A DNA stretch of 64,000 nucleotides, from the NCBI GenBank assembly GCA_018646195.1, contig JABGVH010000199.1:8619-72618 (forward strand), given 5' to 3'. Of this stretch, positions 24,126-34,732 are shown piece by piece (position 1 is the first letter of the stretch; every line of letters begins with the position of its first letter). This DNA is from Halobacteriovoraceae bacterium. GTDB taxonomy: Bacteria; Bdellovibrionota; Bacteriovoracia; Bacteriovoracales; Bacteriovoracaceae. The notes under the pieces are model-generated. The model worked only from the letters and a program-made list of their open reading frames with translations. It made no database searches and was not told where the DNA came from. The translations under genes and the position numbers were made by a program.

Positions 24126-24830
24126 TTAATCAAATTGAATAAAAACGTAGTCTTGTCCCATAAAGAGTTCTTTTTCTTTTAGCACATACTCTTTAGTTTC
24201 GGCCAGATTGGCAAAGACGCCTAAGCTAACTCGGTACCAGGTTCCACGGGACTTAACTTCGACTTCGTTAATTATTGGATTGTATCCCCTTATCTTAAAA
24301 GCTTTCGCAAACTCTTCTGCTTCGTTAAGGGTTCTATGAGATGAAAGTTGAATTGTGTATTTCCCGCTGTATTTATCACGTGTAGAGGAAGGCGGTGCAT
24401 TTTCGGGTGTTGATTCAGTGACTGGTATTACAATTTTCTTGGGATTTTCTATCTTGGCAACCGGCTCAATCGCCTTTGCCGGGATTATTTCATTTTTTTT
24501 TTGAGTCTCTGCCGCAGCTGCCGCTTCCTCTTGAGTAAATTCACGCTCAATTTTCTTTCTTAGGTTGTCGTGCATTTCCTGCTGAAGCTCTTGCGGAGTC
24601 TTTTCACCTGGACGATCTTCCTCCATTTGCTTATGTACTTTTTCTTCCTGGCCAGAAAGAAGGTCCACTTTTTCACGATCTTCAGTCGTGAAGCCTTCTC
24701 TTTGAAATGAAAATTTCTTGCCTACCTTAACACCAAACACAAAAGAGGTTGTGGCTATTAACAGCATAAAAAGGAAAATCAGAAAGACTTCCTTTTTGGC
24801 AAATACAAATAGTTTTGCTTTTTCGTCCAT
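24126..24830 (-). CDS. SPOR domain-containing membrane protein
   Basis: N-terminal TM segment, a Glu/Lys/Pro-rich linker, and a C-terminal SPOR-like module YTIQLSSHRTLNEAEEFAKAFKIRGYNPIINEVEVKSRGTWYRVSLGVFANLAETKE. Confidence 0.75.
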   Translation of the reverse strand: MDEKAKLFVFAKKEVFLIFLFMLLIATTSFVFGVKVGKKFSFQREGFTTEDREKVDLLSGQEEKVHKQMEEDRPGEKTPQELQQEMHDNLRKKIEREFTQEEAAAAAETQKKNEIIPAKAIEPVAKIENPKKIVIPVTESTPENAPPSSTRDKYSGKYTIQLSSHRTLNEAEEFAKAFKIRGYNPIINEVEVKSRGTWYRVSLGVFANLAETKEYVLKEKELFMGQDYVFIQFD

Positions 24831-24950
24831 ACAGTAATTTTAAGGGTATACGCGATTTGATGCAAAAGCTTTCTGGACCGAATTTAGTTCCTTAAAGGAC
24901 TTTTAATACCAGACGATATTCCTAACCTATTAAATAAGGGTTTATTTTCT

Positions 24951-24966
24951 TGGCATCATTCTGGCA
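24951..24966 (+). promoter_or_regulatory. Sigma-54 (-24/-12) type promoter candidate upstream of flp
   Basis: TGGCATCATTCTGGCA matches TGGCAC-N5-TTGCA with correct GG-to-GC spacing (G24952 to G24964 = 12 nt). It lies 39 nt upstream of the flp ATG. The SD GGAGG is at 24991-24995. Confidence 0.35.
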
Positions 24967-25004
24967 TCAATGCCCATCGTAGTTTCAATAGGAGGACTTC
25001 AAGC

Positions 25005-25187
25005 ATGCTAAAAGTAATTCGAGGAAAATTTAAGTCAGAGAAAGGCCAGGGTGTCATGGAATACATCATAATCTCAAGCTTAGTGGGAATATTTTGCCTG
25101 GTCGCAGTAAAGCAATTTGGAAATGTAGTTCAAAAACGTGTTTTAAATATGAAAGAGCAAATAGTTGAGAATATTCCAGTTAACTAA
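25005..25187 (+). CDS. flp: Flp-family type IVb pilin
   Basis: 60 aa. The leader ends at ...SEKG, followed by QGVM-EY and a hydrophobic helix (EYIIISSLVGIFCLVAV). This is the G-x4-EY Flp motif. A strong SD lies upstream. Confidence 0.7.
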   Translation: MLKVIRGKFKSEKGQGVMEYIIISSLVGIFCLVAVKQFGNVVQKRVLNMKEQIVENIPVN

Positions 25188-25483
25188 TGTCTATTATAAC
25201 TCAACTTGGATTCATCTCATTGGCGCTTTGGTGTGTTTTCCAAATTACTGAAAGCATTACCGATTCTCTTTGTAATCAAAAATTTTGGTCTAAATCCATA
25301 AGAACGCATCTCTCCTCTTTTCATGTCACGAAAAGAAAGAGGTTTCATTTTAAATCATGCAATAGACATGAAACATTAATCAGAAAAATAAATACTTTTC
25401 AGAGCAAAAGTACCTCCAAAAGTAAAAAATCATTTAGCATTTTTATTGCTACGAAAACGGGGCTTGATGCATATAAGAAGTGA
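25187..25483 (+). CDS. Small membrane protein, unknown function (Tad operon member)
   Basis: The ATG overlaps the flp stop (TAATG at 25185-25189). It has one hydrophobic segment (LGFISLALWCVF) and a basic tail. No family recognised. Confidence 0.35.
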   Translation: MSIITQLGFISLALWCVFQITESITDSLCNQKFWSKSIRTHLSSFHVTKRKRFHFKSCNRHETLIRKINTFQSKSTSKSKKSFSIFIATKTGLDAYKK

Positions 25484-26078
25484 AAGAGGTAGTATAACTT
25501 TCCTTGGACTATTATTCGCCTTATTCATAGTAAGCTCTACTTTGATCCACTTGTATACACTTTCACAACTACACATCAAAACACGAAATAAAATTAAGAT
25601 ATACCTATGTTTCAAAAGACAGATTAAATTAACAAAAAATTATCTAAGTAAGATGGGGAAACTAAATAAGCTAATCAGTTATTCCTACAAGGCATCTTTT
25701 ATTCCAGCCACGTCAGCAATTTCAAAAGTGACCCACAAGTCACTAATAATATCTCAGCGAATATTTCATGCATCAGTTTTGAAAAACATATCACTTCTAA
25801 AAGATTGTCCCTTTACTAGCCGAGTTAATCACCTTAGATCTTTGCCTTACCAACGTCGATTAGGAATATTTCTCAAACGACATTTAGATGGTACTGCGAA
25901 ACTGAGAACTCATAGATGGAAAATGAAAACAAGTCATTCAATACTCAATTTTTATCTTCAAGTAGATATGAAAGTAAAAAATCGATTTTCAAATTCTCTT
26001 TTCGCTACAAAAACAAAAGAAGTTCGGAAAAGGGTGAAGCCATACTTGAATGGATGGTCTGGATTTCATTTCTATTAA
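25446..26078 (+). CDS. TadE/TadG-like pseudopilin candidate
   Basis: The N-terminus MHIRSERGSITFLGLLFALFIVSS resembles the TadE-like leader plus hydrophobic helix. The likely start is the ATG at 25467. The rest is basic and unassignable. Confidence 0.4.
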   Translation: MLRKRGLMHIRSERGSITFLGLLFALFIVSSTLIHLYTLSQLHIKTRNKIKIYLCFKRQIKLTKNYLSKMGKLNKLISYSYKASFIPATSAISKVTHKSLIISQRIFHASVLKNISLLKDCPFTSRVNHLRSLPYQRRLGIFLKRHLDGTAKLRTHRWKMKTSHSILNFYLQVDMKVKNRFSNSLFATKTKEVRKRVKPYLNGWSGFHFY

Positions 26079-26179
26079 CTTTATTACTATTTAATTTAGA
26101 TATACATCAAAAATTTAAATCTAAGAGAGTTTCATTACAAAGGAGTTTTGAGCTTGAATGGGATAATATCAAGCCCTAA
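25916..26179 (+). CDS. Second TadE-like pseudopilin candidate
   Basis: Contains SSEKGEAILEWMVWISFLLTLLLF (TadE-type motif). It overlaps the previous ORF by 163 nt in another frame. No alternative ATG/GTG/TTG start lies closer to the motif. Confidence 0.3.
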   Translation: MENENKSFNTQFLSSSRYESKKSIFKFSFRYKNKRSSEKGEAILEWMVWISFLLTLLLFNLDIHQKFKSKRVSLQRSFELEWDNIKP

Positions 26180-26606
26180 AAAGGCAATCCAAATTTTAAA
26201 ATTACGATTCTCCCTAGCGATACTAATTAGCAACCTGTCATTGGCAATATTGCTGTGGCCGAGCAAACGGCCGCTAATCGTACAATCAAACCCAAAGAAA
26301 CTCAGACCTGGGCATAATTTAATTACCCTGCCTCTGAAAAACTTCGTCCCCTTTCAGACCGGTCAAAAAGAGGTAGCGGTAAGTCTATATAGTGATTCAA
26401 AAAAAATCATAGTCCCTAAAGCTTATGTCAAATCAAAGAAGATCTCTTCCAGCAATAATGAAAATATAATTTTTTTAGTAGAATTGCCTAGTAAGTACCT
26501 ATTAAAAATAATAGAGCTGAATTCAAAGTCATTATTTGCTTATCCACCGTCTAATATTTTAAAAACTAGCAAAAAAAGGAAATATAATTATGAATTTATA
26601 TTTTAA
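26148..26606 (+). CDS. Minimal CpaB/RcpC-like pilus assembly protein
   Basis: N-terminal TM segment (LAILISNLSLAILLW). The following pattern LITLPLKNFVPFQTGQKEVAVSLY...IIFLVELPSKYLLKIIELNSKSLFAYP resembles the RcpC C-terminal domain. An in-frame TTG at 26154 sits 8 nt after AGGAG. Confidence 0.4.
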   Translation: MSLNGIISSPKKAIQILKLRFSLAILISNLSLAILLWPSKRPLIVQSNPKKLRPGHNLITLPLKNFVPFQTGQKEVAVSLYSDSKKIIVPKAYVKSKKISSSNNENIIFLVELPSKYLLKIIELNSKSLFAYPPSNILKTSKKRKYNYEFIF

Positions 26607-26922
26607 CTTTTGGATTATACATTTTTTATTATTGGTTCTTTTGATTCAACCTATACATGGCCGAGAGGTTATATTGATCAATTTTGATCAGGATTCTTCT
26701 GAACCAAAGGCCCATAAAATACATCAGATCATTACGGAGAAACTTTCGATTCCAAAAGAGTTAGTCAAAACACAGAAAACAAAGGACCCCTGTGTTGAAC
26801 AAAGTCTTGTCTTCTTGCAAATATGTATCACAAACAAAGGACAGGTATATTATCCCGTAATTAAAAGGGCTGAACTAAAGCGGACATTTGCAGTTTTTTT
26901 GGAGGAAAGAAATGAAAATTAA
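26590..26922 (+). CDS. Small secreted protein, unknown function (Tad operon member)
   Basis: 110 aa with signal peptide MNLYFNFWIIHFLLLVLLIQPIHG and two Cys. It overlaps both neighbours. No family recognised. Confidence 0.35.
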   Translation: MNLYFNFWIIHFLLLVLLIQPIHGREVILINFDQDSSEPKAHKIHQIITEKLSIPKELVKTQKTKDPCVEQSLVFLQICITNKGQVYYPVIKRAELKRTFAVFLEERNEN

Positions 26923-28366
26923 AAAATTCTATTTCTCGTGGATCACAAACTTAGGAGTAGTTCCACGGTTTCTATCAGAAGCTTTTCTACGTTTACCAGC
27001 AGACTTTTTCTTATTGGCCCTGCGATTTTTTGTTACACGTGTATTTGAAACCATATCTAAACTCCTGAGAGATTTTAAAACTTTTAATAAGATCAAGTAT
27101 TTACCTATTTGGCTGCTTTCTGTCAATTGCGCGACAGCTGAAGTGCTAAGAAATCCGCAACATATTATAATCTCGAGAGGTGAGCACCGGGAAATCAGCG
27201 TCCCTAGACTGGAGAAATTCACTGTGGGGAATAATGACACGCTGTCCCATAAGCTTTTCAAAGTCCGCTCTATTCTTCTGATAAAAGGTAAAAAAATAGG
27301 TTACAGCGAAATTGTAATCTGGAAAAAGGGCTGAATTAAAGAAATTTATCGAGTCTATGTTCTCTCCAAAAAACAACACCTGAAACTACTTCATCTAGTT
27401 CAGGCACTCGAGGGACTAGGATTAAATACAGAACTCAAGGGTCCCCTGGTTCGAGTGTCTGGAGTGATAGCGAGCCTTCATGAGTATAAGTATATATTGC
27501 GCCTGAACAAAGAATGGAAAGACAAAATTCACTTCGAAGTTAGGCTTTCAAAAAAGCTTAGAAACCTAGTGATTGGCCGAGTTTATCATGCGATCCTCAG
27601 CGAGTTTATAGATGATATAGCCTGCCGAGCTGAAGGAATCAAAATTTTCTGCCATTATTCTGAATCTCAACCTCCTTCTCCATCAATTCGAAAACATCTT
27701 CAAAATTCATATGGCGTAAAATTTATATCTCTAAATAGAAATATTAAGTCAAAAAATTACAGATTACGTTTAAAATTAATACAAATTGAAAAACTAGATG
27801 GGGAAGAGATTTCTTTAGGCCTCGATCGACTATCGGGCTCATTAGATGAGCTTTTCAACTCTGGCGTAGAAGGAATAATTAGAAAAAATAAATTACTCTT
27901 AAGCCGTAGGCAAGTAAAAATTTCTACTTTGGCTGAACCACAATCTATCATGAGGTTGAATTCTCCTCTAGCAATTCAGGTTGGATCTCAAATCCCAATA
28001 AAGACTAAGAATGACCTTGCAGGCTTATCCACTACAGAATGGAAGTTTGTAGGTCTTAACATAAAAGTTATCGCAGAAAGGATTGGTGACAATTTTAAAA
28101 TAAAATATACTACTGAATTTTCACGGCCAGGAGAAGGAGGCTCTTTGACTGGCAGTAAAGAGATTTCAAGTGCAATAGTTCCATTAGGGAAAGCAGTCGA
28201 GCTCTTCCAGATAACATTTCAAACTAGTGGCGAAAATAACTCTAGACTTCCGTGGTTATCAAAGATCCCGCTGCTCGGAAAAATTTTTGAATCTAATTCT
28301 AAACAAGCAATATACAAGAATATAAGTGGTGTTGTTATTCTAGAGGATGTAAGTGAACCAATATAG
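26912..28366 (+). pseudogene. cpaC: CpaC/RcpA-type secretin interrupted by one in-frame TGA (27332-27334)
   Basis: ORFs 26888..27334 and 27455..28366 are in the same frame (567 nt apart), and nothing but one TGA separates them. Translation across it reads ...IGYSEIVIWKKG*IKEIYRVYVLSKKQHLKLL...VRVSGVIASLHEY. The upstream part matches the pilus N-terminal (T2SS-T3SS_pil_N type) domain. The downstream part carries the secretin signature LPWLSKIPLLGKIFESNSKQ. The ATG at 26912 follows GGAGGA at 5-nt spacing. Confidence 0.6.
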
Positions 28367-29489
28367 GAAATATTCAAATGAATTGAGAAGGCAAATAAAA
28401 CTATCGATGGATCAGGGAATTAATATTTCATTTGAGACAATCAAAGAAAAAATTACTTCTGTTCTCGATTTGTGGGGGCTGTCTGAGGATGAAGAATCCG
28501 ATTTATTTATTCTGTACTCAAAGCTTACGAACTGGAGCGCGCTAGAAAAATTTCTCGTAACCCCAGACCTAACTGAAGTTCTACTTCACTCATATTCATA
28601 TATACAAGTCGACACTTTTAGCTCTCATGGACTATTAAACTATGAAATAAGTTTTGAGAATGAGGAAGACTTACAACTTTCAATTGAAGTTTTTGCATTC
28701 AAAAATAGCCAATCTTGGAATAGCTTAGACCCATTCAAAAGTTTTTATTCCATTATTTTTAAAAGAAGTTTTAGGGTTACGTTAATACATGGATCATTGT
28801 GTTCAAATGGATCTCCCAAAATATTTTTTAGACGTACAAAAGAAGAGTTCCTTAGTATTGATTCTTTTACTAACACCATTGACCAGAAAAAATGGCTCGA
28901 GGAAAAAATTAGAAAGAAATCAAATATTATTATTAGTGGTGCTACAGGATCTGGAAAAACAACATTAATGAATTCCTTTATCCACAATATTAATATTGAA
29001 GAACACTTAATTTTATTAGAGGATGTACATGAATTTCCTGGTAAAGATCCACATATCTCTTGCCTTCTTAGCGGAAAAAAAACTCTCGTTGATTATTGCC
29101 ACTATGCACTTCGCATGCGCCCTGATCGCATTATGATTGGGGAGTTACGTGGAGCTGAGATCATTCCCTTTTTTCTTTCCATGAATACAGGGCACAAAGG
29201 GATGCTGACAACTCTTCATGCCAACTCTGCAAGTGACTCGATTGAGCGCCTGGGAACTCTATTCGCACTTTATAGTAAATCTAAAGATCTTCCTTACGAA
29301 AAGGTATTTTCTTTAATTTGCCAAAACCTTGATTACATAATTTTTATGGAAGAAAAGAGAATTGTTGAAGTAATTAAAATACTTGGAGCAGATGGCAATC
29401 GATCAATCTTTCAAAAAGTACCAGAGTTTAATTTGTTAGAAGATGGAGCTTTTCAAGCCATTCCCGACCTTCACTTAGGGGGACCTTGA
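28353..29489 (+). CDS. cpaF: CpaF/TadA-type pilus assembly ATPase (T2SSE family)
   Basis: Walker A ISGATGSGKTT, then LILLEDVHE, IMIGELRGAE and the His box NTGHKGMLTTLHANSA. 378 aa. Confidence 0.85.
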   Translation: MNQYRKYSNELRRQIKLSMDQGINISFETIKEKITSVLDLWGLSEDEESDLFILYSKLTNWSALEKFLVTPDLTEVLLHSYSYIQVDTFSSHGLLNYEISFENEEDLQLSIEVFAFKNSQSWNSLDPFKSFYSIIFKRSFRVTLIHGSLCSNGSPKIFFRRTKEEFLSIDSFTNTIDQKKWLEEKIRKKSNIIISGATGSGKTTLMNSFIHNINIEEHLILLEDVHEFPGKDPHISCLLSGKKTLVDYCHYALRMRPDRIMIGELRGAEIIPFFLSMNTGHKGMLTTLHANSASDSIERLGTLFALYSKSKDLPYEKVFSLICQNLDYIIFMEEKRIVEVIKILGADGNRSIFQKVPEFNLLEDGAFQAIPDLHLGGP

Positions 29490-30534
29490 ATTGAAGAAAG
29501 CAGTCCCCTTTGTTGAAGGCCTCAAGAGGTAAAGCTGCCTCGTCGATAGACCAGCCTATCAAGGTTAGGATTGAGTAATCTAATTCTTCTTTTATACTTA
29601 TCGCTCTTGGCCCCACATGCTTTGTCACACCTGGGCGAATGATCGTACCCCCAAGTTCAGGATTAAGCGAAGAACTAACAATAATCGGAATTCCATTTCT
29701 TCTAGCGGCTTCCATTGTTCGGGGAAAAAGTACCTTACTTCCACCTAGGGTGAGGGCGGTTGCTTCTTCGTAGCTAAGTTCAGGGATAATTTTAGTTTTG
29801 CTTAATTTTCTTGGATCGCCACTGGCGACACCAGGTATATCGCTCCATATTTGAATCTCTTCAGACCCTAAGGCCTCAGCAAATAAAGCGGCGCTGTAGT
29901 CTGACCCTTCCCTGCCGAGAGTCGTTGTATCTCCAACCTCGTTCGATCCAATAAATCCTTGGGTAACAATAATATTATTTTCCTGAATATATTTTGATAA
30001 ATATTTTTCTGATAAGCTACAAATATCCTTGATACAAGGATTGGCCTTACTCCATGAAGAATCAGTTTTTAATACTTGCCTGGCATCAAAATATATAACT
30101 TCTTTCTCAGGCCCCAGTTTTTCTTTGAGTACCTGATAAAAAAGGCGAGAAGAAAGACGTTCACCGATGCCATATAGTTGATCTAGTAACTTTAAATTTT
30201 CATCAGGAGTACGAATTAGGTCAGATAGAATCTGTTGCCCCTCTTCAATGACTTCCTTTAAAAAAAATTTAATCTCGCTGCCTCCGATTAACTCTCCGGC
30301 CATATCCAAGTGTTTTTCTTTAATAGAATCAAGAACTATTGAGGCGTGTTTATTCTTGCCGTTCAAAGCGCTGTTATAAATTTCTTCTAACTCATTGGTG
30401 GTATTATAAGTTGCACTGAGAATAACTAAATTTATTTCAGAATCAGCACTTACGATCTGGGCACATCTCTCCATGCTTTTGCAGTCTTTTACGCTGCTTC
30501 CGCCGAATTTCGCAACAATCTTCTTTGAGGACAT
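29428..30534 (-). CDS. lysC: Aspartate kinase (short, 368 aa)
   Basis: Motifs IVAKFGGSSVKD and GREGSDYSAALFAEALG. The start overlaps the ettA stop (TAATG on the minus strand). Confidence 0.85.
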   Translation of the reverse strand: MSSKKIVAKFGGSSVKDCKSMERCAQIVSADSEINLVILSATYNTTNELEEIYNSALNGKNKHASIVLDSIKEKHLDMAGELIGGSEIKFFLKEVIEEGQQILSDLIRTPDENLKLLDQLYGIGERLSSRLFYQVLKEKLGPEKEVIYFDARQVLKTDSSWSKANPCIKDICSLSEKYLSKYIQENNIIVTQGFIGSNEVGDTTTLGREGSDYSAALFAEALGSEEIQIWSDIPGVASGDPRKLSKTKIIPELSYEEATALTLGGSKVLFPRTMEAARRNGIPIIVSSSLNPELGGTIIRPGVTKHVGPRAISIKEELDYSILTLIGWSIDEAALPLEAFNKGDCFLQFKVPLSEGREWLEKLHLLTN

Positions 30535-32273: not shown

Positions 32274-33134
32274 TTATTCAATTAAAAAGAGTTGGCCGAA
32301 GGAATATAAGAAATAAAGGTAACTACCTAGAAAAAAGAAGCTCAGACAGAAGAATTTTGATCCATTCAGGAGTTTGAGATAAAGCTCAAACCGTTCCTGC
32401 CATAAAAACTGAAGCTCAATTAAAATTTCATTTAGAAGTTCAGAAATTCCCCTGCCCTCATCCCGCCACCGTCGAAGTCCCGCTTCAAAACGCCACAGTA
32501 TTGGCTGACTCCAGCGAGTCTTACAAGTATGAATTTGTCGCATGTCGACATGGGCCAGTATTACTTCTTGGCTCAGGCTGACCTGAGAAAGACAGTGAAA
32601 GGTCATTAAATTTTTGTAAAGTAATGAAAAATTTTTAAATATCAGCGCTCTTATAAATTTATCCATTACCCAAAAAAATACAAACCCCACTCCTTGAATG
32701 AGAAATACCGACATAATTTTACCCGGCATTTCTCTTTCAACCATTTTTTGGCCAATATACATAAAAACCCAGGCAATTAAAAAAGCTAATATAAACTGGA
32801 AATAGCCCCCTACAATCGCTGCACTTAGCTTTTTCCTCCATCTTAGCTCGTGCTGTAAATCTTGCTTGAGACGGTTCAATGGAACCTTTAAGGGAGCACC
32901 AAGGTGCCGACCATGGGATAGCATTTCTTCTACCAGACTGGAGTAAAAACTAAACCTAGGTACTGCTCCCGCACCAGGGGAGCCTGATAAATATTCCACC
33001 AATTGCTCTCCTGGCTTGGCCATAAACCCTTTCTTATTTCTTAAAAGTAGCGGAAAGATTGGCGAGAAACACGCTTCAGGTAGCAAAAACGGGAGTCCTA
33101 AAAGAATAAAAAAGGCACTTATTTTCAGTTCCAT
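32274..33134 (-). CDS. Polytopic membrane protein with two T2SSF-like repeats (candidate TadB/TadC-type platform protein)
   Basis: The ORF track extends to 33395, but the first 87 codons are Cys/Arg-rich junk. The ATG at 33134 gives MELKISAFFILLGLPFLL. Two repeats resemble the T2SSF domain end: HGRHLGAPLKVPLNRLKQDLQHELRWRKKLSAAIVGGYFQFILAFLIAW and DEGRGISELLNEILIELQFLWQERFELYLKLLNGSKFFCLSFFFLGSYLYF. This is pattern recognition only. Confidence 0.4.
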   Translation of the reverse strand: MELKISAFFILLGLPFLLPEACFSPIFPLLLRNKKGFMAKPGEQLVEYLSGSPGAGAVPRFSFYSSLVEEMLSHGRHLGAPLKVPLNRLKQDLQHELRWRKKLSAAIVGGYFQFILAFLIAWVFMYIGQKMVEREMPGKIMSVFLIQGVGFVFFWVMDKFIRALIFKNFSLLYKNLMTFHCLSQVSLSQEVILAHVDMRQIHTCKTRWSQPILWRFEAGLRRWRDEGRGISELLNEILIELQFLWQERFELYLKLLNGSKFFCLSFFFLGSYLYFLYSFGQLFLIE

Positions 33135-33209
33135 AGTATGGATATAAGCAATACTCAAGCCATGTTGCGATGCATTTGACCTTCGGAAATTAGCGGACAA
33201 AGATGGTGT

Positions 33210-33503
33210 ATGAATACAACCACACCTGAATTTAACGCGACGCCAGTTGCACCTGTAAACCAAGATATAATGGGACCAGAAATTAAAATCAAGCACCTTG
33301 CAATTAAAATTAAAAAGCTCAACAAGCTTTGCAATCAACTTGACCCTTATCTGCCTATTCCGGAAGACACTCAAGCCGAACTTCGGGAGTTTCACATTAC
33401 AGATTTTTTTGACCCATTCACGATAACTAATAAACTTTTGGTTTTGCTAGAAGATTCCATTGAAGAGCTTCATAAATTAGAAGGTCACCCCGACACCAAA
33501 TGA
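33210..33503 (+). CDS. Small acidic hypothetical protein
   Basis: 97 aa. Its stop overlaps the start of the downstream methyltransferase gene (ATGA at 33500-33503), suggesting translational coupling. Confidence 0.35.
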   Translation: MNTTTPEFNATPVAPVNQDIMGPEIKIKHLAIKIKKLNKLCNQLDPYLPIPEDTQAELREFHITDFFDPFTITNKLLVLLEDSIEELHKLEGHPDTK

Positions 33504-34732
33504 GCGCGAAGCTGATTAGGGTTCCCCTACACCCAGACACCATAAAATATATTCGGAAGGGACACCCCTGGGTGACGCTCGATCGATTTAGCAAAGAATT
33601 TCCAAAAAAAGATTTAATGGTACTAGGGACCGGGAAAGCTGGAGAGCCAGTTGCCCTACTGCTAAATGATCCTAAACATAAAAATATTAAAGCGAGAGTA
33701 TGGAGCCTAAAGCAACCATTCAATGAGCAGGTCCACCTTTTTAAAACTACCCTTTTTGAGAGGCTTGAAAAAGCTTTCAATAAAAGGACTAAAATGAATT
33801 TACTTGAAGAACGCCAAAATTTTTATTTGGCGTTTGGTGAAGCGGATTTGTTACCCGGCTTGTTTATTCAATATTTAAATGATCACCTGCTGATTCAAGT
33901 CTATGCCGGTTTCTGGAGAAGAGTCGAAAAGGAACTTATGGAAGGTATTGCAAAGGCCTTCCACCAATTTCTTCCAGCAAATACTCCAAAGCATATTTGG
34001 ATTCAAGAGAGAAACTTAGATCAACGAATCAAGCTTCGCTCAGTTTTTTTACCTGGGAAAAAAGCCCCTAAGCCTGACCCGCATTTTCAGTTAGAAGAAT
34101 TCGGTATTCGTTATCAATTAAAATTAGGAGGTCAATATGACTTTGGTCTCTATACTGATATGGCCGCTCAAAGAAAAGTCCTCTCTCCCTATTTTAGTGA
34201 GGCAAAATCTGTATTAAACCTCTATGCCTATACCGGAGCCTATTCTCTTTTCGCTCTTTCTCAAAAATGTGAAAGAGTGGTGAGTATAGACCTCTCAGAA
34301 CACTATCTGAATTGGTTGGAAGAAAACCTGGAGTTAAATCCAGACCTCGAAAGAAAAAATCACCAAAGTATTCTTGGGCCAGTGGCAGAGGTTCTCGAAA
34401 GTAAAGTTAAGCACAAGAAAAAGTTTGATTTAATTATTTGTGATCCTCCTTCTGCTAGCCATGATGGTAAGCAGACTTTACGTGCTCTTCAGACCTACGA
34501 AAAAACAATGAAAAATATGGCAACATTACTTGAAGATGGCGGCAAGTTAGTTTGCTTTCTAAATACACATAGAGTTATTTGGAAGAAATTCCACGACCAG
34601 ATGGAAGAACTTGGAAAAAAGAACCAGCTTAAAATTGTTGATAAATTAAAACTCTCAGCTGATTGTCTAGGAAAGGGAGGGTTTCCAGAAGGAGATTACT
34701 TGAAAGGTTTAGTCTTCCAGAAAAATGTCTGA
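33500..34732 (+). CDS. Class I SAM-dependent rRNA methyltransferase, RlmI-like (PUA + MTase)
   Basis: Motifs IRKGHPWV, ARVWSL, NLYAYTGAYSLFAL, DLIICDPP and the C-terminal FPEGDYLKGLVFQ parallel E. coli RlmI motifs recalled from memory. Confidence 0.75.
   Translation: MSAKLIRVPLHPDTIKYIRKGHPWVTLDRFSKEFPKKDLMVLGTGKAGEPVALLLNDPKHKNIKARVWSLKQPFNEQVHLFKTTLFERLEKAFNKRTKMNLLEERQNFYLAFGEADLLPGLFIQYLNDHLLIQVYAGFWRRVEKELMEGIAKAFHQFLPANTPKHIWIQERNLDQRIKLRSVFLPGKKAPKPDPHFQLEEFGIRYQLKLGGQYDFGLYTDMAAQRKVLSPYFSEAKSVLNLYAYTGAYSLFALSQKCERVVSIDLSEHYLNWLEENLELNPDLERKNHQSILGPVAEVLESKVKHKKKFDLIICDPPSASHDGKQTLRALQTYEKTMKNMATLLEDGGKLVCFLNTHRVIWKKFHDQMEELGKKNQLKIVDKLKLSADCLGKGGFPEGDYLKGLVFQKNV

Follow-up and report, generated by a model that had tools for sequence, protein, structure and literature searches.

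The secretin gene of an accessory Flp-like pilus cluster is interrupted by a premature in-frame TGA at positions 27332-27334 (+ strand) of the window, by which we mean the whole 64,000-nucleotide stretch of DNA analysed here. We put at about 80% the probability that this is a recent single-base nonsense allele, which abolishes the secretin and is polymorphic among strains that are 99.9% identical. The stop lies between two open reading frames, 26888..27334 and 27455..28366, and the 120 nt separating them contain no further stop, the peptide across the site reading ...EIVIWKKG*IKEIYRVYVLSKK.... A preliminary description of this DNA had reported one secretin frame split in this way by a single TGA, and both the frame and the peptide are as it gave them.

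Comparison with relatives indicates that the two frames are parts of one gene. Homologues align as a single polypeptide over both flanking ORFs: of the 24 family genomes compared, 22 have one open frame that matches residues ~5-480 of the read-through query (E values 2e-48 to 8e-102). A search of 5.8 billion proteins gave 111 matches, nearly all of 380-530 aa and carrying PF13629, PF00263 or both, and 109 database proteins in the alignment of homologues span the stop site. Relatives were compared at the family level, this genome being the only one of its genus among species representatives; the named relatives are Bacteriovoracaceae and Halobacteriovorax. All 22 gene-carrying relatives of the family lack a stop within the real coding part of the secretin, and no relative encodes two separate proteins, the arrangement that the preliminary description had named as the case against an interrupted gene. 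In-frame stops were reported in four genomes (G003, G014, G015 and G019), and we rejected these as recurrent interruptions. Those of L009, L010 and G003 (on a 3,435,933-bp contig) all fall upstream of the real coding region, in a stretch antisense to a small gene that we call small41, and the translation of L005 (G019) shows no internal stop.

The closest sequences carry a sense codon at the site. Three contigs from other samples, fetched as the encoding contigs of protein cluster P0002, are 99.93-99.96% identical to the window at the nucleotide level over 5.1-10 kb: L013 (ERZ4200995), L014 (ERZ27237576) and L015 (ERZ4200959). All three have C at 27333, giving TCA (Ser), where the window has G, giving TGA, so that a comparison of the codon in sister strains, as the preliminary description had proposed, returns serine each time. 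P0002 is a 492-aa cluster at ~100% identity with members from ENA, NCBI and JGI; serine occupies the stop position in P0002, P0114 and P0115, and P0114, a JGI protein from a fourth sample, is the same as the window product save for this serine. Told apart by positions 27059 and 27315, at least three haplotype backgrounds carry the Ser codon. Since a sense codon is found on these several backgrounds, and distant homologues also have sense residues here, the stop is the derived state and the sense codon ancestral, with the stop absent from close and distant relatives alike and present in this strain. Neighbouring genes of the cluster have the same lengths as on the sister contigs, and the rest of the cluster is intact. 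Among the options that had been listed for the stop, a recent nonsense mutation is the one supported, given serine in sisters of 99.93-99.96% identity, the lack of other gene decay and the presence of the same TGA in a second assembly.

This second assembly bears on whether the G at 27333 is real. The source is a metagenome-assembled genome (3.82 Mb, 254 contigs, 41% GC, 94% complete), the sister contigs are of low coverage (3-5x by their record names), and the difference is a single base, with C in every other sampled haplotype, all of which would be compatible with a sequencing or consensus error that miscalled G in a strain truly encoding serine. The same G is nevertheless present in L016, a separately assembled contig of 1,596 bp from another ENA record (assembly ERZ4200957), which is 100% identical to window positions 25916-27511, TGA included. 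The 140-aa truncated product (P0113) is encoded on the genome's own 82.8-kb contig and, besides it, on two short contigs, one of which is L016. As one record has this region on a contig of 82.8 kb and the other on one of 1.6 kb, the two are different assemblies, and the recurrence of the TGA in L016 makes a one-off assembler artefact unlikely. From the contig sizes and the assembly record we infer that L016 is independent of the reads behind this genome. The ±10 kb compared also hold no other broken gene, and we judge an error at this base to be unlikely. When JGI metagenome contigs were scanned for exact patterns of the two alleles, neither was matched, in a collection where near-identical records may be masked.

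A real TGA could also be a recoded one. The preliminary description had raised stop-codon readthrough as a switch, and more broadly the codon could be read as selenocysteine, tryptophan or another residue. The frame stays open for 120 nt past the TGA, and all the sequence downstream of it is conserved in the intact sisters, which would suit programmed recoding, but an open and conserved downstream frame is equally expected from a very recent mutation. At the site itself, serine in the sisters and G, K, N or S in homologues occupy a variable turn, with no conserved Cys or Sec position. TGA behaves as an ordinary terminator in this genome: it ends 256 of the 1,690 ORFs of at least 300 aa, closes the gene at 33500-34732 and, as TGA-A, terminates the next gene, that of the adjacent ATPase. 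An alternative code with TGA as sense (tables 4 and 25) was ruled out on this usage. No SelA gene was found in the 94%-complete genome, and ARAGORN, run over the whole genome, detected neither tRNA-Sec nor a UCA-anticodon (suppressor) tRNA. The same run found only 33 tRNA genes and one tmRNA (tag AKSNDFAMPMAA); tRNA-Trp was absent, so the tRNA set is incomplete in this assembly. The 100 nt 3' of the stop fold no better than shuffled sequences (z 0.10), and Rfam gave no match over 24500-30000. Selenocysteine was ruled out on the combined lack of SelA, tRNA-Sec, a significant 3' fold and an Rfam match. As TGA is an ordinary terminator and neither the machinery nor an RNA structure was found, recoding is not supported, and we regard it, the proposed readthrough switch at this variable loop codon included, as very improbable. 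The allele is best read as an ordinary gene knockout, at most leaky, and not as a recoding signal.

To place the stop in the protein, we modelled the intact sister protein with AlphaFold (L013:2602-3870; 423 aa, counted from the signal-peptide-like stretch; 48-sequence alignment), at a mean pLDDT of 90.8. In the model, an N-terminal beta domain of seven strands (residues 22-90) is followed by two alpha/beta ring domains (~92-213) and a beta barrel (221-418), and the best 40 Foldseek matches against the PDB are all secretins (GspD, PulD, InvG, PilQ, RcpA 8odn and pIV), with E values down to 2e-18. In the window, PF00263 matches at ~27917-28306 with 36.5-37.8 bits against a cut-off of 27.5 (38.5 bits in a six-frame search of the genome). 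PF13629 (T2SS-T3SS_pil_N) reaches 11.6-12.9 bits against a cut-off of 23; it scores 34.5 bits in P0009, a homologue of 41% identity, and is present in most database relatives.

The stop corresponds to residue 80 of ~423 in the model, in the K-G-S turn that links strands 69-77 and 81-90 in the first beta domain, and the earlier placement of the stop inside the N-terminal domain thus holds, at a hairpin turn of a confidently modelled fold. The alignment column of the stop is variable (G in 71, K in 15, N in 5 and S in 3 of the 109 aligned homologues) and the next column is mainly gap. The flanking strands are strongly conserved, with W in 108 of the 109 and a nearly invariant Y-V-L-S-K. The 5' fragment (27095..27331, +) encodes the signal-peptide-like stretch KYLPIWLLSVNCATA and the N-terminal beta domain minus its last strand (strands within residues 22-77 of the model), while that last strand, the two ring domains and the secretin barrel are encoded by the remainder (27335..28366, +). 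With only six of the first domain's seven strands translated, the parts for ring formation and membrane insertion are all missing.

On this architecture, translation would halt at residue ~80 of the ~423-aa precursor, at the hairpin turn of the first periplasmic beta domain, and the fragment released would have neither ring domains nor the outer-membrane barrel, while products restarted downstream would be without a signal peptide. With such a fragment and such restarts there would be no channel, and the pilus would be unable to cross the outer membrane, a predicted loss of function. Basal UGA readthrough can yield some full-length protein, and ordinary leakiness of the codon would provide at most a trace of secretin here. 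A premature stop can also exert polarity on a downstream gene, and an effect of this kind on the ATPase gene is possible.

The restarts deserve a separate word, as the two halves could in principle act as the subunits of a split secretin, an N-terminal fragment with a C-terminal one started at GTG 27455 or GTG 27569. In the NCBI annotation there are two CDS, one of 140 aa and one of 265 aa that starts at GTG 27569, and GTG and TTG codons are in frame after the stop, with possible restarts at 27455, 27464, 27497 and 27569. The cut falls inside a beta sheet in the model, though, and the relatives keep the protein in one piece. As a signal peptide is missing from the downstream fragments and no good SD motif precedes 27455, C-terminal products could not be expected to reach the outer membrane, and a functional split secretin is hardly credible. 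The NCBI cluster of the C-terminal fragment (P0126) does not extend to the stop site.

The secretin belongs to a small cluster with the order Flp-type pilin, four small ORFs, small41 (in reverse), secretin and TadA/VirB11-like ATPase, an order that is kept in the family, and a convergent aspartokinase-like gene (PF00696) follows the ATPase. The pilin (25005..25187, +; 60 aa) was recognised by eye from a G/QGVMEY motif followed by a hydrophobic helix; it has a homologue in L008 and no Pfam match. Between pilin and secretin, the four small ORFs (25187..26922, +; 98, 203, 150 and 110 aa) match no Pfam or NCBIfam family, and the last three are syntenic in relatives by tblastn. The 360-aa secretion ATPase (28407..29489, +) is intact and syntenic in relatives, matching PF00437 (E 2.2e-30), TIGR02788 and TIGR03819. 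No CpaB/RcpC, TadB/C, TadZ, TadV or prepilin peptidase gene adjoins the cluster. A possible, very divergent platform (T2SSF-like) protein is encoded by a 373-codon ORF 4 kb downstream (32274..33395, -), where PF00482 gives a weak match (17.8 bits, E 0.007, below the cut-off) at 32754-32960 (-). Promoter and terminator scans were at chance level.

Three other secretins are present in the genome, namely that of a T2SS-like set on contig C138, a PilQ-like one on C238 (the PilB/T/C set being on C163) and a CpaC on C122. The last of these is part of a complete canonical Tad/hit-type locus (C122:5413-14423), all genes of which are open: TadV, Flp, two TadE-like proteins, CpaB, CpaC, a 724-aa CpaE-CpaF (TadZ-TadA) fusion, TadB and a YD-repeat protein. 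The hit/TAD region has been described with this layout in Bdellovibrio and Bacteriovorax (PMC3526173, PMC5430801), and because the locus lies intact on C122, the broken secretin belongs to an accessory cluster. The name Tad secretin, as first given to the broken gene, is apt in that the gene stands beside an Flp pilin and a TadA/VirB11-like ATPase, but it does not denote the canonical Tad/hit locus. In the same way, it is reasonable to expect a non-functional operon as long as this is limited to the accessory cluster, while the suggestion of a host-independence type of adaptation has no basis, the canonical locus being a separate and intact cluster. With the other pilus and secretion systems intact, the loss is probably tolerated.

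The protein resembles the RcpA/CpaC secretins of Tad (Flp, type IVc) pili, such as Pseudomonas aeruginosa RcpA (PDB 8odn), in its PF00263 barrel and ring domains, in the 'pilus formation N-terminal region' beta domain found in its homologues, and in its gene neighbourhood, with an Flp-type pilin and a TadA-like ATPase. It differs in that its sequence is only very weakly similar to RcpA (E 4e-4, over the barrel only) and GspD-type structures outrank RcpA in Foldseek. The cluster differs from Tad loci in that no CpaB/RcpC, TadB/C, TadZ or prepilin peptidase gene adjoins it, and elsewhere the genome has a canonical locus that includes a CpaC. A further likeness is to the TAD operon of Bdellovibrio and like organisms (bd0109-bd0119, with RcpA encoded by bd0112, in the hit-locus region), which is also Flp pilus machinery of a predatory bacterium. 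The Flp pilins of that operon are needed for predation in B. bacteriovorus (PMC5430801), and its synteny with Bacteriovorax marinus has been reported (PMC3526173). Its counterpart here, however, is the intact C122 cluster, and the broken gene is in the second, minimal one.

A natural precedent for the lesion is rcpA of Yersinia pestis, which carries an identical frameshift in all sequenced isolates and is thereby naturally inactivated (PMC1698947). In both cases a Tad secretin gene has been lost by a small mutation while remaining intact in close relatives. In Yersinia pestis the frameshift is fixed in the species and flp has also been lost, whereas here we see a nonsense substitution that is polymorphic at 99.9% identity in a cluster that is otherwise intact.

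Such a polymorphism might be maintained in wild predator populations, with loss of the accessory pilus repeatedly favoured in some niches, where it could allow escape from pilus-dependent phage or alter attachment to prey. On this view both alleles would co-exist in samples whose adjacent assembly accession numbers suggest a single study, and the variable sites at 27059, 27315 and 27333 would hint at selection on a surface machine. We consider maintenance of this kind unlikely. The observation of the stop is correct and, as biology, ordinary, and its significance is small: one natural strain of an uncultured predator in the Bacteriovoracaceae does without the outer-membrane channel of a pilus cluster that is conserved in its family, which suggests that this accessory cluster is dispensable, at least in the habitat of the strain. 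In databases the gene is better entered as a pseudogene allele than as two CDS, and the broken cluster should be kept apart from the canonical Tad/hit locus.

The more unusual item of this area is small41 rather than the stop. This gene (26929..27054, -) is divergent from the secretin, has an AGGAG SD motif 7 nt upstream and encodes a conserved polybasic product of 41 aa (MVSNTRVTKNRR...RNRGTTPKFVIHEK), which in the window reads MVSNTRVTKNRRANKKKSAGKRRKASDRNRGTTPKFVIHEK. We compared it across the window and loci L001-L012 and L021-L025. The ATG, an (A/G)GGAG SD motif 7-8 nt upstream and the stop are all kept in 12 of 12 family loci, and identity is 49-67% by tblastn across loci whose neighbouring genes show 25-45%. 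Of 81 genomes sampled from the phylum, 38 have a match, mostly as an open frame of 42-57 codons, and Halobacteriovorax marinus has the gene annotated. It always stands divergently beside this secretin-ATPase pair; in four other families it does so with no overlap with the secretin ORF, and it lies there immediately upstream of an ORF whose N-terminus looks, by eye, like that of metK (S-adenosylmethionine synthetase). No Pfam or NCBIfam family was matched. It is rarely annotated because gene callers favour the long antisense ORF.

This overlap affects the secretin gene model. On comparative grounds, the first ~55 codons of ORF 26888..27334 (to ~27054) appear to be the antisense frame of small41 and not secretin coding sequence, so that the ORF as initially drawn holds for its downstream part and is too long at its N-terminal end. 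The plus frame over small41 is closed by stops in L009, L010 and G003; elsewhere it is mostly open because small41 and the plus frame share third codon positions. For the same reason codon-position variability could not settle dual coding: positions 1 and 2 are about equally variable over small41 (0.273 vs 0.284), the third positions being common to both frames. Candidate secretin starts are ATG 26912 with a GGAGGA SD motif, TTG 27014 and a non-canonical codon near 27065-27092, and from 27014 to the hydrophobic core of the signal-peptide-like stretch there is no ATG, GTG or TTG. Many secretin models in databases (480-530 aa; P0003, P0004, P0006 and others) start with a Phe/Leu-rich stretch, 'W-I-A-N-L-G-V-V-P-L-F-L', which is the antisense translation of small41, and shorter calls (385-440 aa) begin downstream of it. 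The 480-530-aa secretin models are thus inflated, in many databases, by the open antisense frame of small41.

Two local concentrations of sequence differences were also seen among the sister contigs. Three of the nine variable sites in ~10 kb (27059, 27315 and 27333) are found in a 275-nt stretch at the secretin 5' end and the small41 leader, and are too few for a test of selection. L015 has seven differences from the window, four of which are clustered in 54 nt (window 29457-29510, L015:9594-9647), in the convergent overlap of the ends of the ATPase and aspartokinase-like genes; recombination, or an artefact of the L015 contig end ~400 nt away, could account for this patch.
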